Assembly (NCBI GenBank): GCA_965197525.1
Contig: OZ240211.1
Span: forward strand, 224,001 to 288,000
From: Nitrosopumilus sp.
GTDB lineage: Archaea; Thermoproteota; Nitrososphaeria; Nitrososphaerales; Nitrosopumilaceae
Direction of reading: 5' to 3'
Length of the DNA: 64,000 bases
The position numbers and the translations under genes were made by a program. The notes beneath the pieces were generated by a model, which did not search any database, was not told the DNA's origin, and saw only the letters and a program-made list of their open reading frames with translations. Shown here piece after piece: positions 2,173 to 31,822 of this stretch. The stretch's first letter is position 1. Every line of letters begins with the position of its first letter.

Positions 2173-2289
2173 AATACTTGGATTATATCACGATAACTAA
2201 AGCTTTACGTTGCTAGGTTCTGTGAAATTATAGAGACCTTACTTATGAGGATAGGCGTACATAAATGCCCCAAAATCATAGAATATTTG

Positions 2290-3483
2290 TTGAAGGCAAT
2301 AAAGTCAATAGCACAAAAATATACGCCAAACTCTGACCTAATGGATATGATGGCCACATTCACGGACATGGTTAACCGTTGCATCAAGATAGGGTTAAAA
2401 GAAGACACACACAATATGAAAAGGCTATCATGTCTATGCTATCAGGAATTGAGAGACTATGACATTTTGTCGTCATACAAACTAAATGCAATATCAAGAG
2501 CTGCTGGCATATTGGCAAACAGAAGACAGTCAATAAAACGTGGTGTCAAGGTTAGATACCCAAAGGTAACAAAGCCGTTTATCACTAATTGTTACGGTAT
2601 AAAACACAATGGTGCACTACTTACAATCCCATACAAGAGTAGAAATCCAATCAACATCTTGTTAAACCCGCATACCCAAAAAATCCTGTCAAATCCTGCC
2701 TTGACAGTACGCTCGTTTTCATTGACTGCCTTTAACATCAGTCTTTGTGTTTCCAAGGAGACTGAACAGATAGAATGTACCAAGGCAGTAGGAATCGATA
2801 GAAATTTGAGGAATGTTACATGTGGCAATGAGGAGCAAGTAACATTTTACAAGACAAACAAAATACTATCCATAAAAGAGAACACCATGCACGCCAGAGC
2901 CGGATTCCACAGAAATGATCGCAGAAAGAAAGGTCAATTCTGGAAGGTAAGACAGCAAAGAATGACCAATAGAACAAAACAATACATACACAGAATATCA
3001 AAAGATATTGTGGATAATGCAGTCAAAGAAAAGGCTGTAATCGTTCTAGAAAACCTAAAAGGAATTAGAAAACTCTACAAAAAAGGAAATGGTCAAGGCA
3101 ACAAATACAGGCGCAGATTAAACGGATGGCAATTCTACGAGTTGCAACGCCAAATAGAATACAAAGCCCAATGGGTAGGACTCCCACCAGTCGAATATGT
3201 AGACCCAAAAAACACGAGCACGCAGTGTCCAAGATGCGGAAAGAAACTCCAAGAGGACATGCAACACAGTCGTAAAATGTCGTGTAATAATTGCGGATTG
3301 TACATGGACAGAGACATTGTAGCTGCCATGAACATATCACGCAAACTGTCCCCTAGGTTTAGGGATAGTGGAGATAACATAGGTGAAGCGCAGTCCGGTG
3401 TTTTTGAACCGGCGATGATGGAACCCTGCATACCGGTAATCCAGATAGTCGATATGTCAAAGTCGAGTGATAGGAGGATATGA
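2290..3483 (+). CDS. tnpB: TnpB RNA-guided endonuclease, copy 1
   Basis: RuvC-I GIDRNL, RuvC-II LENL, Zn finger CPRC..CNNC, RuvC-III DRDIVAAMNI. TTG start at 2290 chosen by alignment with copies 2 and 3. Confidence 0.95.
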   Translation: MKAIKSIAQKYTPNSDLMDMMATFTDMVNRCIKIGLKEDTHNMKRLSCLCYQELRDYDILSSYKLNAISRAAGILANRRQSIKRGVKVRYPKVTKPFITNCYGIKHNGALLTIPYKSRNPINILLNPHTQKILSNPALTVRSFSLTAFNISLCVSKETEQIECTKAVGIDRNLRNVTCGNEEQVTFYKTNKILSIKENTMHARAGFHRNDRRKKGQFWKVRQQRMTNRTKQYIHRISKDIVDNAVKEKAVIVLENLKGIRKLYKKGNGQGNKYRRRLNGWQFYELQRQIEYKAQWVGLPPVEYVDPKNTSTQCPRCGKKLQEDMQHSRKMSCNNCGLYMDRDIVAAMNISRKLSPRFRDSGDNIGEAQSGVFEPAMMEPCIPVIQIVDMSKSSDRRI

Positions 3484-3490
3484 CTTGTTA
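3340..3490 (+). ncRNA. Putative omega/reRNA overlapping the 3' end of tnpB copy 1 (approximate bounds)
   Basis: TnpB guide RNAs are known to overlap the gene 3' end; stem 3346-3368 shows a compensatory change in copy 3; conservation among copies stops after GTC(G/A)AGT. Confidence 0.55.
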
Positions 3491-3526
3491 AATCAACAGG
3501 TACCTATAACTTCACAGAACCCGTTG

Positions 3527-3883
3527 CTATACAGGTAAGATTACCTTACCCTCGAATTTTGGGATATTGTCATCTTGAAGTGCTTTTTCTATGACTTGTT
3601 TTTGTTGGACTGTGACTCCTTGGACTATGGTTTTAGATGATCCAGTCTTGTCAACTAGCGCAAGAATGTATCCGCTGCTGTCAGTTAGTACAAATCCAGA
3701 TGATTCATCAACAAATGCGTATAGATTCTCCTCGCCTACAGGGTTCCAGACCTTTGTAGTACTGTTATTGTTTGCCACTAGTGCTAGTGCAGGCATGGCT
3801 TTACCATCAGTCAGTGAATTAAGATATTCTCTTGCTGCGGCAACTCTTTTTTGGCCCAACTTTAATGCTTGAAAGTATTGCAT
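3527..3883 (-). CDS. Conserved hypothetical protein
   Basis: 118-aa ORF; its stop codon lies within the right TSD of tnpB element 1. Confidence 0.75.
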   Translation of the reverse strand: MQYFQALKLGQKRVAAAREYLNSLTDGKAMPALALVANNNSTTKVWNPVGEENLYAFVDESSGFVLTDSSGYILALVDKTGSSKTIVQGVTVQQKQVIEKALQDDNIPKFEGKVILPV

Positions 3884-4157
3884 GATTTAGTAATGACAGA
3901 CTGGTTATAAAAACAAATTTGTGTATCAAACAGATGTTATCTCTGGGTACTGCGTGATTCTGTAGATAGACATTCTAAATACACGTTGTTGAAGTTATGT
4001 ACAACATCGAGTCCTTGATATTGGTATACACTATACCACTTGACAAGCAAGTATACGTGACTTGTAATTTCTCCTTCTCCTTCTTTTTTTATCTGTCATC
4101 GACTAATCTTGAAACTTTGTTCAAAAGACAGTTATATGATCAGCACTCAAGACCGTC

Positions 4158-4535
4158 ATGCCTCTTACAAACGAAGTGATAATAAAGCTAAATGAGATTA
4201 CATTGCTAGTTGAGGATAAATCAAAGCTTACAGAATCTGAGACCGATGAGATAAAAACCATCTTTAGAAATCTTGTAAAGAGCAATCAAAGATATGATAT
4301 GGATGAGATAGAGTACTGGTTTAGCAATGAGGGTAGCTGGACAGTAAGAGAACCTAGAATTCGAATCGTCAACCTTGCAAATTACGTTCAAGACAAGTAC
4401 CAACAGACTGCTCATTTGAGAATTCTCTCTGATACTAGTTGTAATGATGATGGTTGCTGTAGTGATGATGGCGGTGGTAGTAGCAGCAGTAGTGATGGCC
4501 GCAGTGATAGCGGCAATGACGACCATAAATGCTGA
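4158..4535 (+). CDS. Hypothetical protein with D/S/G-rich low-complexity C-terminal tail
   Basis: 125-aa ORF with globular-looking N-terminal part and tail DDGCCSDDGGGSSSSSDG. Confidence 0.75.
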   Translation: MPLTNEVIIKLNEITLLVEDKSKLTESETDEIKTIFRNLVKSNQRYDMDEIEYWFSNEGSWTVREPRIRIVNLANYVQDKYQQTAHLRILSDTSCNDDGCCSDDGGGSSSSSDGRSDSGNDDHKC

Positions 4536-4538
4536 AAA

Positions 4539-4763
4539 CTAGTCTTCTAGCTGTTCTAACAACCTCTTGACAATTTTCGAGTTCTCTGTTCTCGCACTCT
4601 GTATCTCTTTTATACGTACATTATCTTTGTCGTCTTTTACAACCAATTGAAAATATTCTTGGTCTAGGTCACTGTTTGTCTGCTGTCTTTTAATTATTTC
4701 AAACAAAATTCCGATCACCTGTTTTTGCGCATCAATTAGTTCGTCTTTACTGTTCTGGGACAC
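4539..4763 (-). CDS. Small helical hypothetical protein
   Basis: 74-aa ORF, convergent with the preceding gene. Confidence 0.65.
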   Translation of the reverse strand: MSQNSKDELIDAQKQVIGILFEIIKRQQTNSDLDQEYFQLVVKDDKDNVRIKEIQSARTENSKIVKRLLEQLED

Positions 4764-5029
4764 TGCTATGTTTTAGTTGCATGTATCTATATAATTTTAT
4801 TTTTCTTTCTTTTCCTATCTGCCATCTCATATTTGACATATCTACACTGATATTTTATCTAACTCTGATCCGACTCTTAAATCAAAAACTAGTGGCTCAA
4901 AGTCAATCTCAACCAAAAAAATAAACATATGGCATAGTTAGCTCTGATGCAAGCTGCATTAATCTAAACAAGTTTTCTCTCAAATAATTATCTAAATATA
5001 CATTTACAAATTCGATATATCATCTAGTT

Positions 5030-5578
5030 CTATAAAATATCATCAAGTATCTTTACTAATTTTGGATCTGTGATTTCATCTTTTGCAGTTTTCAAAAAAG
5101 TTTCAATATCATACTGTGTTACTTCTCTGATATCTGTTCTGCATTTTGGTATATCTTTGCGCGCCATTTCTAGTTTATCAATCTGATGCAACAATCTTGA
5201 TTCCTCGGTTGCATTCTCCTTGTATTCTTGCCAAATTCTCTGATATGCCGATTGTATGGTTGGAGGCAAATGGTCTAATATTTCTGAGAATGCATCATCT
5301 TCTAGCTGCATCTTTTTTGATTTAGAGATTTGGTTTGGAGTGTAATCTCCGATTTTTGATTCTGCTAGATCATGTAGCAATGCCATTTTAATCATTTTTT
5401 CAGAATCATATCCATTTACATCTGACATGATCATACACATTATTGCTACAGAGTACGAGTGATCAGCTACTGATTCAGGATTGACAATAGATAATTTCTC
5501 TATCCAGCCTTGTCTTGGAACCTCTTTGAGATGTGCTACAGTATTGAAAAAGTCAAGTATCATGCTATCCCTGTTCAA
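5030..5578 (-). CDS. HD-domain hydrolase (YfbR/HDDC2-like 5'-deoxynucleotidase family)
   Basis: LKEVPRQGW, ESVADHS, ALLHDLAE, DKLEM motifs. Confidence 0.9.
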   Translation of the reverse strand: MNRDSMILDFFNTVAHLKEVPRQGWIEKLSIVNPESVADHSYSVAIMCMIMSDVNGYDSEKMIKMALLHDLAESKIGDYTPNQISKSKKMQLEDDAFSEILDHLPPTIQSAYQRIWQEYKENATEESRLLHQIDKLEMARKDIPKCRTDIREVTQYDIETFLKTAKDEITDPKLVKILDDIL

Positions 5579-5625
5579 TTTTGGTATTATTGGGTTTCGA
5601 AGCGTATATTAGCTATTTTTTACCT

Positions 5626-6186
5626 ATGGAATCTGTGAAAATATACACAAAAACAGGAGATGAAGGAAATACCGGACTACAAGACAATTACCGAATATCA
5701 AAATCACACCCACGAATAATATCTTATGGAACAGTTGATGAGGCCAATGCCGCATTGGGAATAGTTCTTGCAAACTCGCTTGATGATGACGTCGCTGATA
5801 TTTTAACTAGGATACAAAACGATCTGTTTGTGGTAGGCGCTGACCTCTCAAACTCTAATCTAAACGATGTAAAAAACCGTATATCACTTGACATGATTGA
5901 TAATTTAGAGCGACATATTGACAAATTTGAATCAGAGTTAGAACCTTTGACTAGCTTTATTCTCCCTGGCGGTGTCATCCCTGCAGCGCAGCTGCATCAT
6001 GCGCGGACAATTGTAAGAAGAGCTGAGACTTTGACTGTTAAACTAAGTGAAACAGCAGAGATCAACTCTAATTGTATAAAATACCTTAACAGGCTATCTG
6101 ATCTGTTGTTTGTAATGGGTCGATTGGCAAACAAGCGTAAAAACAACAAAGACGTAGTCTGGAAACCCAAAAGAGACAAGTTTTAA
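5626..6186 (+). CDS. PduO-type cob(I)alamin adenosyltransferase
   Basis: KIYTKTGDEG, YGTVDEAN, RTIVRRAE, YLNRLSDLLF motifs; ATG at 5626. Confidence 0.93.
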   Translation: MESVKIYTKTGDEGNTGLQDNYRISKSHPRIISYGTVDEANAALGIVLANSLDDDVADILTRIQNDLFVVGADLSNSNLNDVKNRISLDMIDNLERHIDKFESELEPLTSFILPGGVIPAAQLHHARTIVRRAETLTVKLSETAEINSNCIKYLNRLSDLLFVMGRLANKRKNNKDVVWKPKRDKF

Positions 6187-6214
6187 TTCCTCAATCATAC
6201 ACATCCTTTCGAGT

Positions 6215-6291
6215 GCCGAGGTAGCTCAGCCTGGGAGAGCACTCGGCTGAAGACCGGGCTGTCGCAAGTTCAAATCATGCCCTCGGCACCA
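6215..6291 (+). tRNA. tRNA-Phe (GAA), CCA encoded
   Basis: Acceptor GCCGAGG/CCTCGGC, anticodon arm CTCGG-CTGAAGA-CCGGG, TTCAAAT T-loop, ACCA end. Confidence 0.95.
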
Positions 6292-6519
6292 TTTCAATTG
6301 TGCTTTTGCCATGTGTGTGATTTGGCAATATTTTAGCATGACAGTGATACCTAGACTATGATGTCAATATCTGAAGAGGTATTTTACCAATCACCCGTGT
6401 ACCCTATCTAGCATCTGACAAACTAGAATCGTGCATTGACTAAAAATACGACTGGTGCTCAAATGAATCAATTTTGAATAATGTTTAAAAGTAACCCTAT
6501 CCCTTGTTTTTCGATATCT

Positions 6520-6735
6520 ATGGCTGAAAAGGTAGCTAAAAAAAAGACCAAAAAGCAAGCAAACAAGACAAGTAAAGGTCGTAAATCCAAATCTAAATCC
6601 AAGAAAGCAAAAGAAGAACCACTAGGTGATGGCATTGTCATAGTTGATGATGATATTGAGGTTGATCAAGACAAAATCAACGAAGAACGACGTGCTTATC
6701 TTGAGGAAGCTCGTTCTCAAGAAGCATTTGACTAG
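6520..6735 (+). CDS. Small Lys-rich/acidic hypothetical protein
   Basis: MAEKVAKKKTKK...EEARSQEAFD; start inferred at 6520. Confidence 0.7.
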   Translation: MAEKVAKKKTKKQANKTSKGRKSKSKSKKAKEEPLGDGIVIVDDDIEVDQDKINEERRAYLEEARSQEAFD

Positions 6736-6770
6736 GAAATACTTATCAGAGCTAACAGCATATATCCAAT

Positions 6771-7010
6771 ATGCGAGCCTTGTGTTTGATTCTAGTAAAG
6801 CCCGGCAAGGTTGATTCGGTAGTTGAAGTTTTAAAGAAAAAGCGCAAGGTGGTAAAACAAGTCATGATAGTTACAGGAAGAGCTGACATTAGTGTTATTT
6901 TACAAGGCAACATAAACGAAATTAATAACATGGTGATTGATTTTAGAAAGATAAAGAATATCGAGACTACTGAAACGTTAATTGAAGTGGAGGTTAATCT
7001 AGGATGGTAA
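6771..7010 (+). CDS. Lrp/AsnC ligand-binding (RAM) domain protein
   Basis: Stand-alone ~79-aa RAM fold: LILVKPG...VTGRADI...IETTETLI. Confidence 0.8.
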   Translation: MRALCLILVKPGKVDSVVEVLKKKRKVVKQVMIVTGRADISVILQGNINEINNMVIDFRKIKNIETTETLIEVEVNLGW

Positions 7011-7222
7011 GGGCAATTATTCTAGTAAAATCTCCTAAAAAACTAATTGCTGCAAGGTTAAGAAAGATATCATCTGTTGCTGACTCGTTTCCTACTAGTG
7101 GACAATTTGATGCTGTTGCTATAATTGTAGTTGACGAACTAGTTCAGATAAAACAGATCACAACCCAGATTCAAAAAATCACAGGTGTTGAGAGAACGGA
7201 AACCATGGTTGAAGTTACATAG
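7004..7222 (+). CDS. Lrp/AsnC ligand-binding (RAM) domain protein, tandem paralogue
   Basis: AIILVKS...TSGQFDAVAI...GVERTETMV; overlaps the preceding gene. Confidence 0.8.
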   Translation: MVRAIILVKSPKKLIAARLRKISSVADSFPTSGQFDAVAIIVVDELVQIKQITTQIQKITGVERTETMVEVT

Positions 7223-7438
7223 CGTGTTTTTTCTAAACGCGTTTTGTATTCATTCTTATGCTTTGTTTGAACTATTGGTGTGATGGTATTATTCTGAGTT
7301 TTACTGCCGTGCTATAGTATCCTGATATTATCAATCCTATTATTATTATTATCACTGCCTTTACTAAGATCTGGTAATTTTTTAAACCTTTTTTATTTTA
7401 TCGCTTACACTTTTGAAAAATTGTACATGTAAGACATG

Positions 7439-8341
7439 CTACTTGTTGATCTTTTTTATGTATTCTATTATCCCTGTATAGTCTATATGTCCGAATCCTT
7501 CTACAACTGCGTCATTGTATATTTGCTCTGCATGATTGATCATAGGTAGATGTATATCTAAAGCGTTTGCAGCATCTGTAATTGTACTGATATCTTTTTT
7601 AAGATTTGCAAGTGTAAACGTGGTGTTGTATTTACCATTTATCATGTTGTATGCCTTTTTTTCACTCATTCCGGTCTTAAAATATGTAGAGTTTAAAACC
7701 TCGAGAAATATCTCTGGCTTTACACCTGATTCTTTTACAAGGGTGATGCCTTCTGATAGTGATAGTGCCAGCATTGCAATCTGAAGGTTCATAGCTAGCT
7801 TGACTGCATGTGCAACTCCATTACTATCACCAAGCAAAAAGACCTTTCTTGCAATGACATCAAAGACGTCTATGCATTTGTCAAAGCCTTCTTTATTGCC
7901 TGATGCCATCATTACTAGATCACCTGTAATTGCAATATTTGGTCCTCCCATTACAGGAATATCTAATTTAATCATATTGTATTCTTGAAATTTTTCAAAT
8001 GTCTTCACTGACTCTGCAGGTGAGATGGTACTCATATCTGCTACAATCAAGTTTTTGTGATAGCCTTCTACTATTCCGTCTTTATTAAATGAGACCTGTT
8101 TTACAGCATGCGCATCTGTTACTATGATTATTACTAGTTCAGAGTTTTCTGCCACTTCTCTGGGAGTTTTTACAATCCTAACTCCTTGGTCTTTTAATTG
8201 GAGTGTCTTCTCTTCTGTTCTATTATATGCTGTTACATCAAATCCTGATTTGATCAAGTGCGATGCCACTGCTGTTCCTAGCATTCCTAGTCCGACTATT
8301 CCAACTTTTTTTATGCCTGTATTGCTAGTGTCGCTCTTCAT
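7439..8341 (-). CDS. NAD(P)-dependent oxidoreductase, 3-hydroxyisobutyrate dehydrogenase family
   Basis: GIVGLGMLG Rossmann motif, YNRT, DMSTISP, DIPVMGG, VKLAMN. Confidence 0.9.
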   Translation of the reverse strand: MKSDTSNTGIKKVGIVGLGMLGTAVASHLIKSGFDVTAYNRTEEKTLQLKDQGVRIVKTPREVAENSELVIIIVTDAHAVKQVSFNKDGIVEGYHKNLIVADMSTISPAESVKTFEKFQEYNMIKLDIPVMGGPNIAITGDLVMMASGNKEGFDKCIDVFDVIARKVFLLGDSNGVAHAVKLAMNLQIAMLALSLSEGITLVKESGVKPEIFLEVLNSTYFKTGMSEKKAYNMINGKYNTTFTLANLKKDISTITDAANALDIHLPMINHAEQIYNDAVVEGFGHIDYTGIIEYIKKINK

Positions 8342-8711
8342 CTCTAATCTCCCAGTGATTGCCTCTAAACCTTGGTGCTACAAACTCTAGCTGACCTATT
8401 GTTTTATCACCTCTCTTGACTTTGGCAAAATCAATCTTTTGTCTTGTAAACGTTTTCTCCTTTGGTTTGTATCCTCCTTCTATGACCTTTACCTTGAATC
8501 TCTTGCTGGCTCTGAGAATTAACTTTCTTGCAATTTGCACGTCACCTATCCACGAAAACATCTCAAAATCTCCAAAGTTTTTTGTAGATACATTGTATCC
8601 ATATAACCTAGCTTCAAGTTTTATTGACTGTGTCTTTGCTTGCTGGTTTAGCCATGCTACTACCTTCTCCCCATGGCCTCTCTCCACTCCAAACGTCTCT
8701 GAATCCCTCAT
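8325..8711 (-). CDS. Conserved hypothetical protein
   Basis: 128-aa ORF overlapping the start of the downstream dehydrogenase gene. Confidence 0.7.
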   Translation of the reverse strand: MRDSETFGVERGHGEKVVAWLNQQAKTQSIKLEARLYGYNVSTKNFGDFEMFSWIGDVQIARKLILRASKRFKVKVIEGGYKPKEKTFTRQKIDFAKVKRGDKTIGQLEFVAPRFRGNHWEIRDEERH

Positions 8712-9288
8712 ATGACTAAGCTTGTAATGCTATACCATAATAATAATTTTCATAGCTATAATATTTTTTGACTTGGTTGATAATACAGACATAGTTTATC
8801 TTTAAAAAGTATCTTTTAATTCAAACATCTTCAGTTGGTATGGCGACCACATCATTATGCCCATGTCTAATGTTGTATTAGGTATTTGGGATCTTGAACA
8901 TACACCTTTTCACGTCATACTATTTATCAGTATCATGTCTTGTATTTGATTGCATTTCATACATGAATGCATCGGCAAAGATTTTATCATGCTGTCATCA
9001 ATAGAGGTGCTTTAGAAAATAACGTGCCTAATTTTTTGTTTTTCAGTTTATGTATCATGTATAATATTATGATCAACTGTTTTTTACCAAACGCCTGTTT
9101 TAATTCTTCGTTATCTTTTTAGAATATTTCTACTGCCATCAAATGTAAGATATCTTGAATTAGTTTGATGGCTGCACTGTAGTGTGCTATAACAATAGAT
9201 ATCATGGCAGCTATATGGATTGTGGCAGGGATTGATGGTAATTGAAAAAAACAAAAAATAATCTATTTGGAGTGTGGTAACGGCATGT

Positions 9289-20153: not shown

Positions 20154-20258
20154 TAATATCCAACATGCTCTAGAATTTCACAACTTTACTGTACTACTAA
20201 TTCAGACATTAACGATTTAGTAAAATCAATTTTCATATACTCGAAAAATAAACCATCT

Positions 20259-23472: not shown

Positions 23473-23777
23473 GTTTTGAATCAGAGCTATCATCAGGAAG
23501 GTTTTGCATTCCCTCCTGCATGCAATGTAAAAAAATTGTATGGCCTCCAACTGAGTTCTGTAATCGCTGTTTTGGCACCATCACACTAAAACACGGAGAT
23601 TTTGTAGGTAAGGTTGTGGAATTTTCAGAGTATCATGATCATTATTTTTGTGTAGTGGAATTTGAAGGATCTGTACAAGTGATGGCGAAGATCTCAAATA
23701 TGCCCATAGTTGGTCAGAGCGTAAAGATTGTACAATGCGGCATATCAGACGGAAATTATTTTTTCAATGTTGCTTGA
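23469..23777 (+). CDS. DUF35 Zn-ribbon/OB-fold thiolase scaffold protein
   Basis: CxxC...PP..FCxxC followed by OB-type strands; ATGA overlap with the thiolase. Confidence 0.85.
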   Translation: MSFESELSSGRFCIPSCMQCKKIVWPPTEFCNRCFGTITLKHGDFVGKVVEFSEYHDHYFCVVEFEGSVQVMAKISNMPIVGQSVKIVQCGISDGNYFFNVA

Positions 23778-24606
23778 ATTTTGTGTATATGTACGGGGTT
23801 TCAATCTTTTGATCAAATGTCCACACGGTTGGCAATGATATAACATCAATCACTTGTAGATTGTGTTTTTTTATCAGGGCGTTCCATCCTCCATGCTCTG
23901 AGCTGTTACTGGACAGATGTCTCTTTGTATTGGTCCCTGCAAATGTTATTGCCGTGTTGTCTTTGAGGTCTTTGATATTTTTTATCTTTTCAATTATGTT
24001 GTCTGCTAGGACATCTCCTCCCATCTGTGGAAGGCCACCTACAAAAAATATTGGATGTTCTAGCTTTAATTCTGTATAATCAAACTCTAAAGCGTCGGCG
24101 TTTACTGGATTAAAGTTTTGATGTGCCTGTTTAGCAATTATTTTTTGTAACTCTGTTAATGTGTCATCTATCTCTAGGCTGTATGTCGTTAATCCTAACA
24201 GGTGCCCGCAAAATGCAATTCGTCCATCTCCTGAGCCTATGTCGACTAATTCTGTGTATCTAAACTGCTTTGCAGCATATGCCATGATAAATGCCGACAT
24301 TATCCATGTAGGGTAAAACGGCTGGCAACTAGAACCGTGCTTGATACTGTTTAGCCAGTATTCGTTGATATCACCTTCGTATATGGTACAATCAATCCCT
24401 AAAATTTTTTGATTATAATGATTATAGTATATTGGATTTTTTTGAGCAAATCCATGCAATGATGCTAACAGACGCTCTGGGTATGGAAATTCTTTTGATG
24501 TTTTATTTGGAACCACTTCTTGAATATGCGCGTTGCCTACATAGTTTTCTGCAAAGTTCTGTTTTACGGAAATCAGAGTCTCTGCTTGATTATTGTTTTG
24601 TATCAT
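23764..24606 (-). CDS. Class I SAM-dependent methyltransferase-like protein
   Basis: LVDIGSGDGRI motif I, SLEID, DALEFD. Confidence 0.75.
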   Translation of the reverse strand: MIQNNNQAETLISVKQNFAENYVGNAHIQEVVPNKTSKEFPYPERLLASLHGFAQKNPIYYNHYNQKILGIDCTIYEGDINEYWLNSIKHGSSCQPFYPTWIMSAFIMAYAAKQFRYTELVDIGSGDGRIAFCGHLLGLTTYSLEIDDTLTELQKIIAKQAHQNFNPVNADALEFDYTELKLEHPIFFVGGLPQMGGDVLADNIIEKIKNIKDLKDNTAITFAGTNTKRHLSSNSSEHGGWNALIKKHNLQVIDVISLPTVWTFDQKIETPYIYTKFKQH

Positions 24607-24638
24607 GGCTTTGATCTCTTATATGGGTTTGATAAACT

Positions 24639-26010
24639 GGTTCTGTCGAGTTAACGGGTGTTGACTGATGAGGATTCTATCAGCATCAAAACTCATATAC
24701 CTATTTCAACAGTGTTCATTAGGTAACACATTAACTACTTGACTTTGACATATCGACTATCTGGATTACCGGTCTGCAGGGTTCCATCATCGCTGACTCA
24801 AAAACGTTAGACTGCGCTTCACTTATGCCAACTCTACTATCCCTAAACCTAGGGGACAGTTTGCGTGATATGTTCATGGCAGCTATAATGTCTCTGTCCA
24901 TGAATAATCCGCAATTATTACACGACATTTTACGACTGTGTTGCATGTCCTCTTGGAGTTTCTTTCCGCATTTTGGACATTGTGTGCTCGTGCGTTTTGG
25001 ATCTACAAATTCGACGGGTAGCCCGACCCATTGGGCTTTGTATTCTATTTGGCGTTGTAGCTCGTAGAATTGCCAGCCGTTCAATCTGCGTCTGTACTTG
25101 TTGCCTTGACCATTTCCCTTTTGGTATAATTTTCTTATTCCTTTCAGGTTCTCCAAAACAATTATGGCTTTTTCCTTGACGGCATTATCTACTATGTTTT
25201 TTGAGATTTTGTGTATGTATTGTTTTGTTCTGTCAGTCATTCTTCTTTGTCTTTGCTTCCAAAATTGACCTTTCTTTCTACGATCATTTCTATGGAATCC
25301 GGCTCTAGTATGTATTGTGTTCTCTTTGATTGATAACAACTTGTTTGTTTTGTAGAATGTTATCTTTTCTTCATTTCCGCATGTGACGTTACGTAGATTT
25401 CTATCGATTCCCACTGTCTTGGTACACTCTATCTCTTCTGTTTCTTTCGAAACACAAAGACTGATGTTGAGAGCAGTCAATGAAAACGAGCGTACTGTCA
25501 AGGCGGAGTTTGACAGGATTTTTTGAGTGTGTTGGTTCAACAAGATGTTGATAGGATTTCCACGTTTGTATGGTATTGTGAGTAGTGCACCATTGTGTTT
25601 TATGCCGTAGCAGTTTGTAATGAATGGATTTTTGATAATTGGGTCTTTTACTTTGACACCACGTTTGACTGACTGCTTTCTATTTGATAATACTCCGGCA
25701 GCTCTTGATATTGCATTGAGTTTGTATGAAGATAAAATATCATAGTCTCTCAATTCGTGATAGCATAGCATGGATAACCGCTTCATGTTGTGGGTATCTT
25801 CCTTTAGTCCTATTCTAATGCAATGGTTAACCATCTTTGTGAATGTAACCATCATATCCATTAGGTCGGAATTTGGTGTATGTTTTTGTGCTATTGACTT
25901 TATTGCTCTCAACGAATATCTTCGGTTTAAAGTTATTTATATCTTGTTCAGAGGGATCTTTCTACCATGGAATCAAAATTTATTTCAACACCCGTTAACT
26001 TGACAGAACC
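24639..26010 (-). mobile_element. Non-autonomous tnpB element, copy 2, with TIRs and 8-bp TSD
   Basis: 26-bp TIR GGTTCTGTC(G/A)AGTTAACGGGTGTTGA with one mismatch; TSD GATAAACT at 24631-24638 and 26011-26018. Confidence 0.95.
24731..25912 (-). CDS. tnpB: TnpB RNA-guided endonuclease, copy 2
   Basis: GIDRNL, LENL, CPKC..CNNC, DRDIIAAMNI all intact. Confidence 0.95.
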   Translation of the reverse strand: MRAIKSIAQKHTPNSDLMDMMVTFTKMVNHCIRIGLKEDTHNMKRLSMLCYHELRDYDILSSYKLNAISRAAGVLSNRKQSVKRGVKVKDPIIKNPFITNCYGIKHNGALLTIPYKRGNPINILLNQHTQKILSNSALTVRSFSLTALNISLCVSKETEEIECTKTVGIDRNLRNVTCGNEEKITFYKTNKLLSIKENTIHTRAGFHRNDRRKKGQFWKQRQRRMTDRTKQYIHKISKNIVDNAVKEKAIIVLENLKGIRKLYQKGNGQGNKYRRRLNGWQFYELQRQIEYKAQWVGLPVEFVDPKRTSTQCPKCGKKLQEDMQHSRKMSCNNCGLFMDRDIIAAMNISRKLSPRFRDSRVGISEAQSNVFESAMMEPCRPVIQIVDMSKSSS

Positions 26011-26249
26011 GATAAACTCATTGTAATATTCTCACATGTTTTTGTCTACACGTCGCTCTTTTTCCTGCACTTCATAAAATGATCTGTTTCTGAGACGAGT
26101 CTTTGTACTTGATGGAATCTTCTATAATCAATTAACACCTAATCTTATGGATTTTGGGAATTCATCTTTGAATTATACAAAATAATCTTGTAAATTAGTG
26201 TACTATTTTATAATGATTATATAATTACCTTGATCTTTTATGTGACTGC

Positions 26250-26903
26250 ATGGTAAGAAAATATTTGACGCCAAAGTTCTTCTCATCAACTGTTATGGCC
26301 AAACCCTCTAGTAAAAAAATTCGCGTACAGAATCAGCGGTCTGCCCGTTTGCGTAGACAGCGAGGATATCACTGGGAGGATACAATCGTAAAGAGGTTCA
26401 ATGATCAGGACAATTGGAAAGCGTTTCGACTAGGATCTGCTAGTAATGCCTTGCCTGATATACTGGCAGTTAATACTCAAGCCAAGACGATATATACAAT
26501 TGAAGCAAAATCAGGCACTGGCACATCATTGTTTGTGCCTGCAGACCAGATTGAACGATGCATGCGTTGGGTTAAGACGTTTGATATTTACAAGAAGAGG
26601 AAGGTTATTCTTGCCTTTAAATTTCTCTCAAAGAAGCGGATTGATATAGATGTGTACCAAAGTCGTGAGTTGAGAGAATTTTTTAAGATCTGGGATGATG
26701 ATCGGGATATTACAGATTGTGTATGTAGTTACGATGGTAAGGTATCGATAAAAGTAGGTGGTATAGAAAAGACAGAGATCGCACTTAAGAGTGGCAAGAT
26801 GCCGTTTCAGATTAGAGGGGGGACTAAATCACTAAAACTGCCAACCAAACGGCTAAAGTATAAAAAAAAGATCAGAGATACCCGGAAAACTAATGCCAAG
26901 TGA
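26250..26903 (+). CDS. Holliday-junction-resolvase (Hjc)-like PD-(D/E)XK nuclease
   Basis: GYHWE, PDILA, IEAK motifs; start may be 26295. Confidence 0.8.
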   Translation: MVRKYLTPKFFSSTVMAKPSSKKIRVQNQRSARLRRQRGYHWEDTIVKRFNDQDNWKAFRLGSASNALPDILAVNTQAKTIYTIEAKSGTGTSLFVPADQIERCMRWVKTFDIYKKRKVILAFKFLSKKRIDIDVYQSRELREFFKIWDDDRDITDCVCSYDGKVSIKVGGIEKTEIALKSGKMPFQIRGGTKSLKLPTKRLKYKKKIRDTRKTNAK

Positions 26904-26945
26904 GTTTCAAATCGTTTTTAAGTATAGTATACTAAATGATATTAG

Positions 26946-27410
26946 ATGCCCAAAGAAACAGATGATGATATTAAGATAAATACCGAACTAGACCCCAAGA
27001 TTACGGAATCATTACTAGAGACAGTATCTGATGCTAACGTTAACTCACGAATCAATTTTGAAGAGTTTACTGACGAACGTGTGCTGATAAGTCATGATGC
27101 CTTTGGCAAGAAACAGATGAAGATCAAAGTGTTGGAGGTATCTGACGAGATTCCTACATTACAATGGAAGTTTGGAGATCGTGTAAAGATCACAAAAATT
27201 CTTGTTACTGTAAAACATCTTACAACACAACAAGTTGAAGAAGCAGAGTTTGACATAGAGGCAATAGAACTCGAGATGGCAGAAAAGAGACACTATTCAT
27301 CTACGAATAGATGGATTCCTAAAACAGATATAAAAAATGGTTATGTGGTAGGATCAAAACATACTAGGTTGATAAGCGATGCGTCAGCATTAGACTATAT
27401 CGCATTTTAG
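26946..27410 (+). CDS. Conserved hypothetical protein
   Basis: 154-aa ORF. Confidence 0.7.
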   Translation: MPKETDDDIKINTELDPKITESLLETVSDANVNSRINFEEFTDERVLISHDAFGKKQMKIKVLEVSDEIPTLQWKFGDRVKITKILVTVKHLTTQQVEEAEFDIEAIELEMAEKRHYSSTNRWIPKTDIKNGYVVGSKHTRLISDASALDYIAF

Positions 27411-27626
27411 ATTTGTCTCAAACACATGATAGAATGTTTATTCATTTCATAGTTGCATCAACATTGCTGTAATTCTATTTTTACTCCATCTTGACTTTTA
27501 CTCTCAAATTAAATCTTGTCCATTTGTAGGAATATTCAAAAACAAACAAGCAAACAAACCAATTTTAAATCAATCTGGATGTCCTCAACGATAAAGTTTT
27601 ATGAATCAAATATGTGTTAATAGTGT

Positions 27627-28886
27627 ATGATAAATGATAAAATCATAATTGCGATAATTGTAGTACTCACTGGAATTCTTGGTGTCGTTGCCCTCTCTTC
27701 TGGAGCTGATATTGAAATTCTTGATGCGATTCCAAGGGATATACGCTCAATAACGCTAGATGGTGATGCTGCCTCTGCAGCTGTCGTAGATGAGATAATT
27801 GCAATGTATGATTCTGATAAAGAAGGTACTTTGGAGTATATCAATAATCTGGATTCAAATGATCCGTCATATCCATTCGTTATTGACGCGATACGGGGGT
27901 TAATCATAGCTCATGGTTCTGACTCTGACTTGACATCAACTGAATCTTTGATACCTCTTGATAGAGCTCACAAACCATATGCTGTAATACTAGATGAATT
28001 AATAGAACGAAGCACAGATACTAATGAATATAGGGGTGTTTGGGCAGAGTATGTATTTCTAAATCCTGAGTTGGGTCAAGATCAACTCAAACGTTCTTGG
28101 TTGGTGTTGCATGATGGTTACATCTTTGGTTCTGGGCATTACTACTCACCCGAAGCTAGGGCCCAACAAGAAGTTTCTTATGCAATTGAGTTGTACGACG
28201 AGATAGGCCGAGATGCATTTAAACGTATTAACACATTGTCGTTACAGCCCTACTCGTTTTATGCAGTAGTCATTGAGATAGATTCTTCCAAAGTTATAGC
28301 TCACGGTGCATTTCCTTATGAGAATGTTGGAGTCAAAGTAACCCAATCACTTGAAGGATTAAATGATTTAGATCATGATTCCTCTTTTTGGCTGTACGTA
28401 CAAAATAAGAATCCAATATCGGGGATTGTTGAGCAGAAACGTATTTGGGTAACTCCTCATGAGGGATATCTCTTCACATCTGGATATTATTATTCAGCTG
28501 AAGAAAAAGTCCGCGAGAATATTGAAGTTTTAGTTGATGCATACAAATCTAATAAAAAACAGGTGTTCGATGAAGTAAATGCTTTAAACTCTGTTGATCC
28601 ATACTATCCATTTATTTTAAATGCCACTACTGGAAAGATTGAAGCCCATGGCGCTTTTGTAAGTCGAATTGGGATTGATTCCATAATACTAAATGACGGA
28701 ACAGAGAGGTTATCAAAAGACATCCTCGATGATCTGTACAAGTATAACAGTACTTGGACTGATTACAAGTTTACAAACCCTAGCACAGGTGAATTAGAAC
28801 ATAAACGCACTTATTTGTACTTGCATGATGGATATGTCTTTGGTGCTGGATTTTATTATTCTGTATTTGGAAGCACTGCACGTTAG
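27627..28886 (+). CDS. Membrane-anchored or secreted protein with three Cache-like domains
   Basis: N-terminal hydrophobic helix; three repeats ending W.xY.F.NP..G....K......DGY.F..G.Y. Confidence 0.75.
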   Translation: MINDKIIIAIIVVLTGILGVVALSSGADIEILDAIPRDIRSITLDGDAASAAVVDEIIAMYDSDKEGTLEYINNLDSNDPSYPFVIDAIRGLIIAHGSDSDLTSTESLIPLDRAHKPYAVILDELIERSTDTNEYRGVWAEYVFLNPELGQDQLKRSWLVLHDGYIFGSGHYYSPEARAQQEVSYAIELYDEIGRDAFKRINTLSLQPYSFYAVVIEIDSSKVIAHGAFPYENVGVKVTQSLEGLNDLDHDSSFWLYVQNKNPISGIVEQKRIWVTPHEGYLFTSGYYYSAEEKVRENIEVLVDAYKSNKKQVFDEVNALNSVDPYYPFILNATTGKIEAHGAFVSRIGIDSIILNDGTERLSKDILDDLYKYNSTWTDYKFTNPSTGELEHKRTYLYLHDGYVFGAGFYYSVFGSTAR

Positions 28887-29356
28887 AATACATTTTCAAG
28901 ATTTATCTGTGTCCTGTCGTTTGACGTCATTTTATCAACACATTAATGTTAGTACACATTGAGATTAGGCTCATAGATTGTAGATGTCATAAGTGTAAGG
29001 TCATTTTTTACCCAAGTTTATCTAATTGTGCTAGTTGGGGTTACTAAAAATTTAGCGATAATTACGACTAGTATCAGTTGTTATGAACGTAGACGCCGCT
29101 GGTTAAAAACGAATATAATAACACGTATTCTTATATACATATTTTTAAGAACGTTATAGTCTAATTTTAGAGCATGGTTATTTTTGTAGTTATGCAAAAA
29201 ATTTAATCATGCTAGTCAAAAGCACTACGCTGATATTAGTTTAGGCTCTTCACACATAATTGAAGAAAGATACTTAAACTATGAGAAATTATTTTGGTTA
29301 GGAATTAGCAATCATGTATAATAATAATAATAATACAGAAAAGTTAAAGATCCACT

Positions 29357-30175
29357 TTGGGACTGTTGGCTATGATTGAATTTGATCTCTTTATTCTTGG
29401 TATAGTTGGCTTTGGATTAGGTTGGGCAGTTGGCATGTCAGGATTAACTCTTACATCTGCCCGTTTTTTAGCAGTAGCTACTATTGAATTTTCCATACCT
29501 ACAGCAGTTGGTACAGCTATTGGTGGGACTACATTTAGCATGATACCTGCTGCGCTAAATTACTACAAGACGCGCAGTATTCATACCAAAATATTTGCTG
29601 TAATGGTACCTCCAGGTGTCGCCGGCGCCATCTTGGGGGCACTGTTTATCAGTTTTATTCCTAGTGCTGTCATTATAGCAGTAATCACAGTCTTGATGGT
29701 GTATGGTCTTGTAAGTCTATTGCGTAGTAAAACAATAAAACATGGTGGAGTTCAAACTGTATTACACAAGTATCAATACATCCGAGAAGGTATTGTCGCA
29801 TTTGGATTAGGTTGGCTTGTTGGCATGTTTGGAGTGCTGCTTGTAAATGTAAGATTGCTATCAATGATGGACAAGTTCAAAATCGGGCCAAAAGTTGTAA
29901 TTGGGACTAGTATAGCTATCTCATGTGTTCTCGGATTGACATCCTTTGCAGGGCATACTATTCTTGGTAACGTGAACTTTTTGTTGTTATTTGTTCTAGC
30001 TAGCACTGGGATGGTGGGAGGAATAATTGGCGCTAAATTTACAAATCGCATGAGTCAAAAAAAGTTAAAGATTATACTGATTATCCTATTTTTGTTTATA
30101 ATCAGTTACCTGCTCTTTATGTTGACTAATGTGTTGTTACGACCATCTGTCATTAATTGTAGCACATGTTTCTGA
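29357..30175 (+). CDS. Sulfite exporter TauE/SafE family membrane protein
   Basis: Multi-TM protein; AVGMSG, AVGTAIG, VIGTSIA pattern. Confidence 0.85.
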   Translation: MGLLAMIEFDLFILGIVGFGLGWAVGMSGLTLTSARFLAVATIEFSIPTAVGTAIGGTTFSMIPAALNYYKTRSIHTKIFAVMVPPGVAGAILGALFISFIPSAVIIAVITVLMVYGLVSLLRSKTIKHGGVQTVLHKYQYIREGIVAFGLGWLVGMFGVLLVNVRLLSMMDKFKIGPKVVIGTSIAISCVLGLTSFAGHTILGNVNFLLLFVLASTGMVGGIIGAKFTNRMSQKKLKIILIILFLFIISYLLFMLTNVLLRPSVINCSTCF

Positions 30176-30251
30176 ATATGGAGATTATGTCAGTAACTGT
30201 GCCAACGCAGTCATGATCTGATTAACAATTCGTACTAGTATTAGGATTTAG

Positions 30252-31539
30252 GGTTCTGTGAAGTTATCGGGGGTTATCTGTTAATCCCTAAATTGTATAA
30301 ACCTCTAAACCGTAAGATATTCGTTGAAAGCGATAAAGTCAATATCACAGAAATATACGCCAAACTCTGATCTAATGGATATGATGGCCATATTCACAAA
30401 GATGGTCAATCATTGCATCAAGACAGGATTGAAAGAAGACACTCACAATATGAAGAGGTTGTCCATATTATGTTATCATGAATTACGTAATTATAACATC
30501 CTGTCTTCATACAAACTAAATGCAATATCACGAGCTGCAGGCATGTTATCAAACAGAAAACAATCAATCAAACGAGGTGTCAGAATAAGAGACCCAATAG
30601 TCAAAAATCCCTTTATGACAAACTGTTACGGCATAAAACACAACGGTGCACTATTAACAATCCCATACAAGAAACATAACCCAATCAACATTTTACTCAA
30701 CGTTCACACCCAAAAAATCCTATCTGATCCCGCCTTGACGGTGCGCTCGTTTTCATTGACTGCCCTCAACATCAGTCTTTGTGTTTCAAAAACAGTACAA
30801 GAGATAGAGTGCACCAAGAAAGTGGGAATAGACAGAAACCTAAGAAATGTGACGTGTGGGAACAAGCAAGAGGTGACAGTCTACAAGACAAACAAACTGT
30901 TATCCATAAAGGAGAACACAATACACGCTAGGGCAGGATTCCACAGAAATGATCGCAGAAAGAAAGGTCAATTCTGGAAACAAAGACAGAGACGAATGAG
31001 CAATAGAACAAAGCAGTACATCCACAGAATCTCAAAGGATATAGTAGACAACGCAGTCAAAAACAAGACTGCAATCGTCATGGAAAACCTGAAAGGAATA
31101 AGAAAATTGTACCGAAAAGGAAACAGTCAAGGTAACAAGTACAGGCGTAGATTGAACGGGTGGCAATTCTACGAGTTACAACGCCAAATAGAATACAAAG
31201 CCCAATGGGTCGGGTTGCCTCCAGTCGAGACAGTAGACCCAAGAAACACGAGCACGCAGTGTCCGAAATGCGGAAAGAGACTCCAAGAGGACATGCAACA
31301 ACATCGTAAAATGTCGTGTAATAATTGCGGTTTGTTTATGGACAGGGACATCATCGCTGCCATGAACATATCACGCAAGCTGCCCCCTAGGTTTAGGGGT
31401 AGTAGAGATGACATAGATGAAGCGCAGTCCGGCACTTTTGAGCAGGCGATGACGGAACCCAGCACATCATTGGTAATCCGAATAGTCGATATGTCAAAGT
31501 CAAGTTATAGGGGTTAACCCTCGATAACTTCACAGAACC
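30252..31539 (+). mobile_element. Non-autonomous tnpB element, copy 3, with TIRs and 8-bp TSD
   Basis: 25-bp TIR GGTTCTGTGAAGTTATCG(G/A)GGGTTA; TSD GGATTTAG at 30244-30251 and 31540-31547. Confidence 0.95.
30324..31517 (+). CDS. tnpB: TnpB RNA-guided endonuclease, copy 3
   Basis: GIDRNL, MENL, CPKC..CNNC, DRDIIAAMNI all intact. Confidence 0.95.
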   Translation: MKAIKSISQKYTPNSDLMDMMAIFTKMVNHCIKTGLKEDTHNMKRLSILCYHELRNYNILSSYKLNAISRAAGMLSNRKQSIKRGVRIRDPIVKNPFMTNCYGIKHNGALLTIPYKKHNPINILLNVHTQKILSDPALTVRSFSLTALNISLCVSKTVQEIECTKKVGIDRNLRNVTCGNKQEVTVYKTNKLLSIKENTIHARAGFHRNDRRKKGQFWKQRQRRMSNRTKQYIHRISKDIVDNAVKNKTAIVMENLKGIRKLYRKGNSQGNKYRRRLNGWQFYELQRQIEYKAQWVGLPPVETVDPRNTSTQCPKCGKRLQEDMQQHRKMSCNNCGLFMDRDIIAAMNISRKLPPRFRGSRDDIDEAQSGTFEQAMTEPSTSLVIRIVDMSKSSYRG

Positions 31540-31822
31540 GGATTTAGTACTCAAACAGTGGGTGCACTATTAACCCCAATATAAGACAAGGATGGAAAAA
31601 CATGTTATCTGTTCTGATGAGTGTTAGACATTATAATACAGTCTAACTCTTATTTGTGACTTGTGTCCTAGGTTTTGTGGATTTATTGGGAATTTTTTGC
31701 TGTTTGATACCTGTTCATGCTTTTACCTTGCAACTGTCAATAGTATTTGTGCTGTTTTGTTATTGCCAAACATTGCACAATCTTTGGGTAATCTTTAGAT
31801 TAGACAAATCTCTAAAAATTAC

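Follow-up and report, generated by a model that had tools for sequence, protein, structure and literature searches.

Three tnpB-only transposons of a sponge-associated Nitrosopumilus probably belong to an old archaeal family of non-autonomous elements whose sole cargo is an OMEGA module, comprising tnpB and the scaffold of an omega-RNA. We consider it likely that such elements are moved in trans and that their TnpB targets empty alleles. The elements are found at 2216-3521, 24639-26010 (minus strand) and 30252-31539 of the window, which is the whole 64,000-nucleotide stretch that was analysed. Direct reading reveals one intact tnpB in each, ends formed by 24-26-bp inverted repeats starting with GGTTCTGT, and a perfect 8-bp duplication; the cargo consists of TnpB and its predicted guide RNA only. 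The first-pass annotation had described tnpB elements with terminal inverted repeats and exact 8-bp target-site duplications, and the repeats, duplications and reading frames were found again where it had placed them. It had also noted that no transposase lies within the elements, which indeed have no room for such a gene, and that the left ends resemble one another only from a TATA-like motif ahead of the TTG start codon onward, a description consistent with the three left ends here.

Element 1 (2216-3521, plus strand, 1306 bp) is a tnpB-only, non-autonomous member of subfamily 3, which has two more copies elsewhere in the genome with 97% DNA identity to it. By direct reading, its left terminal inverted repeat, GGTTCTGTGAAATTATAGAGACCT, is located at 2216-2239 (plus strand) and its right repeat, GGTTCTGTGAAGTTATAGGTACCT, at 3498-3521. 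These are identical at 21 of 30 positions over 30 nucleotides, with one mismatch in the first 18. The duplication CGTTGCTA, likewise read directly, occupies 2208-2215 on the left and 3522-3529 on the right, and a TAM-like TTA lies directly 5' of the left copy (2205-2207, plus strand). The tnpB gene (2290-3483, plus strand) has a homologous TTG start near 2290, and its open frame reaches up to an ATG at 2245. The predicted omega-RNA scaffold (3354-3521, plus strand) includes a core at 3354-3466, corresponding to an nhmmer match at genome positions 227354-227466, and continues into the right repeat; position 3522 would be the first of the guide.

Element 2 (24639-26010, 1372 bp) belongs to subfamily 4 and carries its tnpB on the minus strand (24731-25912, 393 amino acids). 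Its repeats are 26 bp long with 1 mismatch, and the directly read duplication GATAAACT is located at 24631-24638 and 26011-26018. A TAM-like ATG, in minus-strand reading, lies 5' of the left-end duplication (26019-26021). The predicted omega-RNA scaffold (24639-24851, minus strand) has its core at 24739-24851 and its right end at 24639, and the guide would read downwards from 24638.

Element 3 (30252-31539, plus strand, 1288 bp) is a representative of subfamily 1, the most abundant, with 16 full-length copies whose TnpB proteins are 92-100% identical. Its 25-bp repeats differ by 1 mismatch, the right one lying at 31515-31539, and the duplication GGATTTAG was read directly at 30244-30251 and 31540-31547. 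A TAM-like TTA is found 5' of the left duplication (30241-30243, plus strand). The tnpB gene (30324-31517, plus strand) starts with TTG and encodes 397 amino acids. The predicted omega-RNA scaffold (31388-31539, plus strand) extends from a core at 31388-31503 through the right repeat, and the guide is expected to run from 31540 to about 31559.

The host genome (2.21 Mb, one contig, 99% complete) contains about 35 copies of full length, together with about 15 miniature derivatives reduced to their ends and the guide-RNA region. Genome-wide, 50 loci are homologous to TnpB and 51 omega-RNA cores are present. Miniature elements correspond to tnpB elements that have lost internal sequence but kept the 3' end of tnpB. 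A family-wide search, as the first-pass annotation had proposed, identified 54 pairs of GGTTCTGT repeats in the genome; 29 are flanked by perfect 8-bp duplications, and in another 2 the copies differ by one base. Flanks shifted by 10, 20 or 30 bp gave 0 matches, so the duplications exceed chance. The duplication is absent at 23 of the 54 pairs, and a search for reciprocal flank pairs that might account for these found none.

All three reading frames match the Pfam family Cas12f1-like_TNB (E values of 5e-21 to 2e-22), and a match to the NCBIfam model guided_TnpB reaches 125 bits (cutoff 100). Matches of the protein in the PDB are Cas12f and TnpB. As the first-pass annotation had proposed, the RuvC D-E-D residues and zinc finger are intact: D170, E254, D342 and the four cysteines of the CxxC...CxxC finger are invariant in the TnpB alignment.

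A covarying structured RNA spans the region from the 3' end of tnpB to the right inverted repeat. The omega-RNA model has 33 predicted pairs, and 94.8% of cells pair, compared with 26-43% when partners are slid. Compensatory double changes occur in 25 pairs (4-10 when slid), and 0 of 500 shuffles reached the observed values. Helix 6 joins the scaffold to the right inverted repeat, with compensatory changes, and positions 7-12 from the right end are part of one omega-RNA helix. Within the window's own lineage, helix 6 pairs imperfectly with the inverted repeat (4-6 of 6 pairs by manual reading). Homologous helices are retained in the Nitrosopumilus group and in the miniature elements. Covariation shows that the predicted scaffold shares sequence with the 3' end of tnpB and terminates within the right inverted repeat. 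An Rfam search with the omega-RNA matched no family. In element 3, RNA contigs, which show neither RNA ends nor levels, reach their maximum depth at 31354-31501, and this peak is a weak hint of the omega-RNA.

Empty single-copy sites were found for the insertions, one of them precise and two by synteny. A related organism has the exact empty site of element 3 with a single octamer, more than 40 genomes from the genus have the flanks of element 1 side by side, and element 2 is absent from the syntenic site in relatives. TnpB relatives with 37-90% identity, bearing the same ends and duplications, are present in Thaumarchaeota, Bathyarchaeia and Atabeyarchaeia (Asgard). The architecture spans three archaeal phyla.

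The candidate partner is a transposase with a DDE_Tnp_IS240 domain, for which the genome has eight loci. One intact gene lies within a 1970-bp element (C1:746475-748444) that is bounded by GGTTCTGT repeats and flanked by an 8-bp duplication. The repeat of this element is identical to that of tnpB subfamily 5 in the first 18 bp and at 21 of the first 22 positions. It is an autonomous DDE element of the kind that the first-pass annotation had proposed to look for. The transposase is about 380 amino acids long and scores 42-65 bits with Pfam DDE_Tnp_IS240 (cutoff 27). The first-pass annotation had called the mobilizing enzyme IS6-like. Among NCBIfam models, IS6 fits it best and along its full length, but the score of 103-121 bits is just under the cutoff of 125. 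"IS6-like" is the safe wording, because of this score and because SWIM and IS1/IS1595-type zinc-binding domains are added at the N terminus. ISL3, which had been offered as an alternative family, scores 19 bits compared with 103-121 bits for IS6 and is not supported.

Elements bearing this transposase are 2.0-6.5 kb in length and include passenger genes, such as a methylase with an HNH protein or an Eco57I-like enzyme. Other genomes contain about 40 of them with GGTTCTGT repeats and perfect 8-bp duplications. In an Asgard genome, the repeat of a 6.5-kb transposase-bearing element closely resembles the repeats of the local tnpB elements. The transposase was found in 4 of 5 tnpB-element host genomes in each of two sets tested; the search gave no match in the tnpB-element host G028 and in one other genome, G044. 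Recognizable inverted repeats are missing at 4 of the 8 transposase loci of the present genome. A tblastn search with the TnpB alignment placed tnpB inside none of the 36 transposase loci screened, its sole match (L120) falling outside the element, and of about 45 transposase-bearing elements examined, 0 contain tnpB. No fusion, operon or conserved neighbourhood joining TnpB and the transposase was found. Shared ends and 8-bp duplications, with tnpB in 0 of about 45 elements, support mobilization in trans. Moreover, this single-contig genome has no match to PF01797 (Y1 TnpA), for which controls respond, or to PF00239 (serine recombinase). The earlier suggestion that an IS6-like DDE transposase acts in trans is thus supported.

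The left flanks of the tnpB elements carry a conserved motif, N-T-R, that is mostly TTA or TTG and is separated from the duplication by a fixed spacing of zero nucleotides. With copies oriented by the omega-RNA, the motif abuts the 5' side of the left duplication in 28/28 intact copies of this genome and in 14/14 elements of other genomes, which is 42/42 in all, and miniature elements without tnpB also carry it. On the mirrored right side it occurs in 5 of 28, and the background is 14.6%. Transposase-bearing elements have it at background frequency (about 6/30 and 3/25), and the autonomous element whose repeat matches subfamily 5 is flanked by ACA/CAA rather than TTR. In a subset of transposase-bearing elements, oriented by the transposase gene, the duplication begins with TG. 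The TTR occupies the position at which the putative TAM of a TnpB guided by the right flank must be, so the empty site, consisting of TTR, the duplication and the right flank, would be a TnpB target.

The following mechanism is suggested by these observations. Movement of the tnpB elements is most likely catalysed in trans by the SWIM/zinc-finger IS6-like DDE transposase. The right flank would supply the guide, whose first 8 nucleotides would therefore be the target duplication. An unoccupied allele, 5'-TTR followed by the duplication and the right flank, would present a TAM with a full guide match. An occupied allele would be immune at both junctions, since the left matches the guide over 8 nucleotides only and the right is preceded by ...GAACC and not TTR. 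TnpB thus most likely cuts empty alleles, perhaps on sister or incoming chromosomes or in revertants without the element, and cutting would either impose repair templated by the occupied copy or eliminate the empty allele. Persistence would then be limited to insertions that arrive, or are placed, beside a TAM and correctly oriented. Among the points against this proposal, members of the IS6 family are considered to transpose through replicative cointegrates with no excision step, which removes the usual rationale that TnpB restores the element after excision. Also, selection acting only after insertion would not easily produce a motif frequency of 100%.

In another explanation, possible though in our view unlikely, TnpB or its ribonucleoprotein participates in target choice. 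Recognition of the TAM would position the IS6-like transpososome for strand transfer directly 3' of TTR. The presence of the motif in 42/42 intact copies at zero spacing fits this idea, as does its background frequency in transposase-bearing elements without tnpB, and post-insertion selection would need to discard more than 90% of random insertions. However, retention predicts the fixed spacing equally, since under it the first base of the duplication would also be that of the guide. TnpB and the transposase share no fusion, operon or conserved neighbourhood, and tnpB is in 0 of about 45 transposase-bearing elements. The miniature elements also bear the motif without tnpB, which calls for TnpB in trans under either model. 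If target choice is the cause, the family would represent a primitive coupling of an RNA-guided nuclease and a DDE transposase; the anatomy would be unchanged, and only the cause of the motif would differ.

Alternatively, TTR might reflect an asymmetric target preference of the transposase subfamily that moves tnpB elements, unrelated to TnpB, which we regard as quite improbable. The orientation-dependent TG bias in a subset of transposase-bearing elements implies that the enzyme family may not be strictly symmetric, and tnpB subfamilies lack one-to-one assignments to cognate transposases. However, a transposase has little by which to orient tnpB elements, whose two end repeats are almost identical. 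The ACA/CAA flanks of the element matching subfamily 5 and the background frequency of N-T-R across about 40 transposase-bearing elements also argue against such a preference, and the motif lies exactly where a right-flank guide predicts the TAM and is T-rich, as are known TnpB and Cas12f motifs. It is scarcely credible that ordinary IS200/IS605 elements of the IS1341 type inserted into pre-existing IS6-type MITEs, to which the repeats and duplications would then belong. Such tnpB-only elements are common in archaea, and this genome does have miniature elements with the same ends. Nesting is contradicted because the guide-RNA scaffold pairs, with compensatory changes, with the right inverted repeat itself. 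Only about 45-75 nucleotides, a promoter, lie between the left repeat and the start codon, and the stop codon is 20-150 nucleotides or less from the right end. The miniature elements are internal deletions that keep the 3' end of tnpB, the architecture is conserved as TnpB identity falls from 90% to 33% across three archaeal phyla, and the genome lacks a Y1 transposase. Retention of insertions through cutting of empty alleles remains our preferred explanation.

Among known systems, the closest are the DDE-associated TnpB branches DDE-1 to DDE-6 and the solo TnpBs with matching ends reported by Altae-Tran et al. (2023, PNAS, PMC10691335). The ends of those solo TnpBs resemble the ends of transposase-bearing elements, which is taken there as mobilization in trans. 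Because prokaryotic TnpBs in DDE elements and solo TnpBs in trans are already published, the present family is less novel than the first-pass annotation had hoped. As in that report, a prokaryotic TnpB lies between inverted terminal repeats rather than IS605 or IS607 ends, and the 3' end of tnpB is less than 250 bp from the transposon end. In contrast, the family named in the part of the paper covered here is IS630, no TAM-like motif beside the duplication is described in that part, and "IS6", "IS26" and "IS240" are absent from its main text; the covered part of a 2026 review (PMC13565253) names ISL2, IS630 and IS1031. Also in contrast, tnpB and a DDE transposase never share one repeat pair here (0 of about 45). 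One of the published DDE branches may be the present family. No literature link between TnpB and IS6 was found, nor any report of classical IS6 elements carrying TnpB.

Like the IS6 family (IS26, IS257/IS431, ISS1, IS1216), the partner has the DDE_Tnp_IS240 catalytic domain and makes 8-bp duplications, and the inverted repeats start with GGTTCTGT. Some repeats here read GGTTCTGTTGCA..., and the IS257 repeat is GGTTCTGTTGCAAAGTT (PMC4856351). The partner differs in its length, its additional N-terminal domains and its score below the NCBIfam IS6 cutoff. Its elements, at 2-6.5 kb with passenger genes, do not have the compact single-ORF size of classical IS6 elements, which are 0.7-0.9 kb with one ORF.

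The similarities to OMEGA systems of IS200/IS605 and IS607 elements (ISDra2, IS608 and the tnpB-only IS1341 group), and to their restorative homing, include the canonical RuvC D-E-D and zinc finger of TnpB and a predicted omega-RNA overlapping tnpB at its 3' end and extending to the right end of the element. A guide apparently taken from the right flank and a TAM-like motif at the left flank would make the empty site the target, as in those systems. In contrast to them, these elements have no Y1 or serine transposase and no subterminal hairpin ends, and instead have 24-26-bp inverted repeats and an 8-bp duplication that lies between the TAM-like motif and the left end and would form the first 8 nucleotides of the guide. 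Also, TnpA target sites match the TAM, whereas the partner transposase has no TAM preference. Fanzors resemble the present family in that a TnpB-family nuclease is the cargo of DDE-type transposons and the guide RNA overlaps the right inverted repeat. However, Fanzors come from eukaryotes or viruses, their RuvC-II glutamate is often rearranged, and they occur in autonomous elements of many superfamilies, whereas the elements described here are archaeal, retain the canonical glutamate and are strictly non-autonomous.

The three elements lie at window positions 2216-3521 (element 1), 24639-26010 (element 2, with tnpB on the minus strand) and 30252-31539 (element 3), in a genome that consists of a single contig (C1) of 2.21 Mb with 39.6% G+C. 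The stretch is also represented in sponge metagenome runs. On direct reading, the tnpB-only transposons reported by the first-pass annotation have exactly the coordinates, ends and duplications described: each begins with GGTTCTGT, has terminal inverted repeats of 24-26 bp, and is flanked by a perfect 8-bp duplication (CGTTGCTA, GATAAACT and GGATTTAG, respectively). The one ORF of each element encodes TnpB, with a match to the Pfam Cas12f1-like_TNB model (E about 1e-21) and a score of 125 bits against the NCBIfam guided_TnpB model, whose cutoff is 100; in element 3 the gene spans 30324-31517. Among solved structures, those of Cas12f and TnpB come closest. Residues D170, E254 and D342 and a CxxC...CxxC zinc finger are invariant in a TnpB alignment that extends down to 32% identity. 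Also located between tnpB elements is a separate insertion sequence, with a 407-aa IS4/IS5-type transposase ORF (9309-10532, minus strand; DDE_Tnp_1, E 9e-12).

A whole-genome scan for GGTTCTGT repeat pairs, together with tblastn, finds approximately 35 full-length tnpB copies of 1280-1450 bp in about ten repeat subfamilies, and miniature elements, some 15 in number and 208-497 bp long, that retain both ends and the last 90-120 tnpB codons. The conserved 3' region is present in 51 genomic copies according to an nhmmer profile. The scan for repeat pairs, which the first pass had proposed, yields 54 of them, of which 29 have perfect 8-bp duplications and two more have duplications differing by one base, whereas flanks of the same 54 pairs shifted by 10-30 bp give no duplication match. 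No match to Y1 transposase (PF01797) or serine recombinase (PF00239) occurs in the genome, although both profiles give hits in control genomes. The other 23 pairs (43%; for example, C1:182311-183642, 296603-297889 and 598949-600235) lack a duplication. Among the 15 of these that can be oriented, nine have the bases N-T-R (discussed below) at the left end and an unrelated right flank, an arrangement that resembles replacement of that flank. Reciprocal flanks, which intramolecular replicative transposition or recombination between copies would be expected to leave, were sought among the 23 pairs, and only chance-level AT-rich near-matches were found. Small single-copy elements of 171, 835 and 851 bp share the same ends, lack the omega-RNA core, and have content without informative matches.

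The association is also found outside this genome. Nitrosopumilus, Nitrosotalea, Nitrosotenuis, soil Thaumarchaeota, Bathyarchaeia and Atabeyarchaeia encode TnpB relatives with 37-90% identity. Most of these lie between GGTTCTGT repeats, and perfect 8-bp duplications accompany many of them. The pairing of tnpB with these repeats is old and stable, and is not a chance feature of this genome.

All three window elements are real insertions. For element 3, a contig of a related organism (~95% identical) joins window position 30238 to 31784 and holds ATTAGGGGTTAGTACTCAAATATGAG between the junction points. This contig has no element and one copy of the octamer (GGGGTTAG versus GGATTTAG), and so provides the single-copy empty site that the first pass had suggested looking for. 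The genes flanking element 1 are neighbours in over 40 genomes from this genus; because identity to these relatives is ~74% and the intergenic spacer shows a difference of ~11 nt, what they establish is absence of the element and contiguity of its flanks. Element 2 is absent by synteny, with a gap of ~490 bp in relatives versus 1784 bp here.

Matches to DDE_Tnp_IS240 occur at eight loci in this genome. One, an autonomous element of 1970 bp (C1:746475-748444), holds an intact 378-aa transposase gene (C1:746963-748096) between perfect 26-bp repeats (GGTTCTGTGTAATCTTCGTGATATGG) and is flanked by the duplication CTATTGTG. The repeat of this element agrees with that of tnpB subfamily 5 (GGTTCTGTGTAATCTTCGGGTG...) at each of the first 18 bp and at 21 of the first 22. 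A second element, of 3190 bp (C1:699962-703151; locus L005), has perfect 30-bp GGTTCTGT repeats and no target duplication; the passengers beside its SWIM-IS6-like transposase are a DNA methylase (N6/N4) and an HNH endonuclease. The best NCBIfam model for the partner transposase is IS6, matched end to end at 103-121 bits, just below the curated cutoff of 125, and SWIM and IS1/IS1595-type zinc-binding motifs occupy its N-terminal ~130 residues. Judged from these matches, the enzyme is IS6-like. ISL3, which the first pass had offered as an alternative, scores only 19 bits and is rejected. Several of the repeats here open with GGTTCTGTTGCA, to be compared with the published repeat of IS257, a member of the IS6 family, GGTTCTGTTGCAAAGTT (PMC4856351).

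The partner transposase is encoded in 100 of 251 genomes of the order. About 40 of its elements, of 2.0-6.5 kb, can be delimited by GGTTCTGT-type repeats and perfect 8-bp duplications, and none of these contains tnpB. In the Asgard lineage Atabeyarchaeia, a 6.5-kb transposon (chromosome CP147779, L120:6277-12830) with GGTTCTGT repeats and the perfect duplication TGGAGAAC encodes, besides a transposase of the same type, a 995-aa Eco57I/MmeI-like methylase-endonuclease; its repeat closely resembles those of the tnpB elements in the same genome. The GGTTCTGT-repeat transposons carry restriction-modification genes as well as OMEGA modules (tnpB with its omega-RNA scaffold). The transposase is present in four of five tnpB-element host genomes tested, and again in four of five in a second set. 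Because most genomes with tnpB elements encode it, mobilization of these elements in trans by an IS6-like transposase, as the first pass had proposed, is well supported; the shared ends and 8-bp duplications point the same way.

At four of the eight transposase loci here, no inverted repeats were found within 1.5-2.5 kb. Intact-looking IS6-like genes without GGTTCTGT repeats in that range (C1:2002343-2003476, 922604-923722 and 1596824-1597258) may be domesticated, may be parts of much larger elements, or may have decayed ends. In many cases a transposase element is separated by exactly 8 bp from the nearest end of a different GGTTCTGT element, and these 8 bp equal the duplication of the transposase element (X-E1-X-E2-X). 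Such arrays are found at loci L146 and L167 of one genome and at L172, L176, L177, L179, L180, L185, L187, L191 and L199, and suggest end-targeted insertion, in which new copies appear to enter the duplication flanking a resident copy. With orientation by the transposase gene, the duplication begins with TG, often after T, in a subset (L145, L146, L149, L152, L155, L159, L163, L181 and L182), several after TTATAA-N6; this subset includes orthologous or arrayed copies, so its effective size is small.

The omega-RNA comprises six helices with 33 pairs, as predicted by RNAalifold from 13 tails of the Bathyarchaeia and soil-thaumarchaeal group. In this alignment, 94.8% of cells pair, versus 26-43% when partners are slid by 1-3 columns; compensatory double changes occur at 25 pairs versus 4-10 when slid, and none of 500 shuffles matches the observed values. 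Helix 3 has five to six pair types at each of four positions. In helix 6, the segment just past helix 3 pairs with positions 7-12 from the right end, so that the right inverted repeat forms part of the RNA scaffold; in element 3 the predicted scaffold lies at about 31340-31539. The first pass had named an ordinary IS605 unit nested in a MITE as a case that would overturn its reading. Because the right repeat belongs to the scaffold, this arrangement is ruled out, and the OMEGA module forms a single unit with the inverted repeat.

The Nitrosopumilus group, among whose members are all three window elements and four of the miniature ones, retains helices 3 and 5 and, by manual reading, helix 6 in part only. 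Within the tnpB coding region it has an extra, lineage-specific hairpin (window 31420-31445 and homologous positions in other copies; alignment A4, columns 96-113) that is missing from the Bathyarchaeia and soil group. This hairpin covaries strongly: one pair occurs as GC, AU and CG, and seven double changes fall at a single pair. Joint folding of all 26 tails gave only two helices, since MAFFT misaligned the lineage-specific insertion, and the groups were folded separately instead. No Rfam family matches the omega-RNA region, and the class defined here is absent from that database. Among Logan contigs of two sponge metatranscriptomes, RNA-contig depth is 320 over the tnpB 3' end versus ~8 in the 5' part, and the ratio in a DNA run is ~4-6; because contig depths cannot rank parts of a gene or show RNA ends, the peak is no more than a hint. 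One RNA contig spans the right end.

Empty sites were reconstructed for all omega-RNA-bearing copies with intact duplications, oriented by the RNA. In the three bases directly 5' of the left duplication (n = 26), the first is T in 20 and A in six, the second is always T, and the third is A or G in 13 each; elements 1, 2 and 3 have TTA, ATG and TTA. When two copies with one-mismatch duplications are included, N-T-R is found on the left-end side in 28 of 28 copies and on the mirrored right side in five of 28. It also stands on the left-end side in all 14 copies from other genomes with intact or one-mismatch duplications. In contrast, transposase-bearing elements have N-T-R in about 6 of 30 cases on the side upstream of the transposase gene and in about 3 of 25 on the other side, and the background frequency in the genome is 14.6%. 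The motif therefore tracks the OMEGA module rather than the transposase.

N-T-R occupies precisely the place required of a TAM (the recognition motif of the TnpB target) if the right flank supplies the guide. The reconstructed empty allele reads 5'-TTR, duplication, right flank. At an occupied left junction only 8 nt match the guide, and at an occupied right junction ...GAACC precedes in place of TTR. Second genomic sites for 49 inferred guides were at chance level among the matches obtained (up to two mismatches), with no exact match bearing TTR. The family supplies compact archaeal TnpBs of ~395 aa for which TTR is the likely TAM.

Alongside the observed anatomy, copy history, covarying RNA and one-sided motif, we propose the following as the most likely course. 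The IS6-like enzyme would move tnpB elements in trans, and the omega-RNA would continue past ...ACAGAACC at the right end and terminate in the flank. TnpB carrying this RNA would cut TTR-flanked empty alleles, and occupied alleles would then be copied or favoured. In this retention model, insertions without a TAM would be lost, whether through deletion between the duplication copies or because they recombine with empty alleles present in the population. The main rival has identical anatomy, but holds that TAM recognition by TnpB steers integration itself. The fixed spacing and 100% frequency of the motif fit both steered integration and retention; we consider steering improbable. A target-indifferent DDE transposon might gain a strict, oriented rule for landing or survival (5'-TTR directly before the duplication) solely through TnpB and its omega-RNA. 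This idea, whose boldest form has TAM recognition directing IS6-like integration, is improbable; if that form were true, the family would represent a minimal natural precursor of transposition coupled to an RNA-guided nuclease, and one independent of CRISPR-associated transposons.

In the accepted view, TnpB restores IS605 or IS607 elements that have been excised without a scar. Its role in transposons that have target duplications and may never excise is discussed mostly for eukaryotic Fanzors. Among prokaryotes, the present family offers a clear-cut case: its independent insertions number in the dozens, and nuclease module and transposase are on separate elements. Transposase-only elements serve as an internal control, given that the TAM-like motif appears only with the OMEGA module aboard. 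Because of this separation and control, the role of TnpB can be tested by simple assays.

TnpB within DDE-type elements is already known as a kind. The main text of Altae-Tran et al. 2023 (PMC10691335) describes six DDE-transposase-associated TnpB branches, all with inverted terminal repeats, and solo TnpBs whose ends match transposase-bearing elements, which were read as trans-mobilized. A 2026 review lists ISL2, IS630 and IS1031 (PMC13565253). We found no literature link between TnpB and IS6, as far as the main text is concerned in the case of PMC10691335. New here are the strict separation of nuclease and transposase on different elements, the incorporation of the inverted repeat in the omega-RNA, a TAM-like motif adjoining a duplication that would supply the first bases of the guide, and the IS6-like partner transposase.
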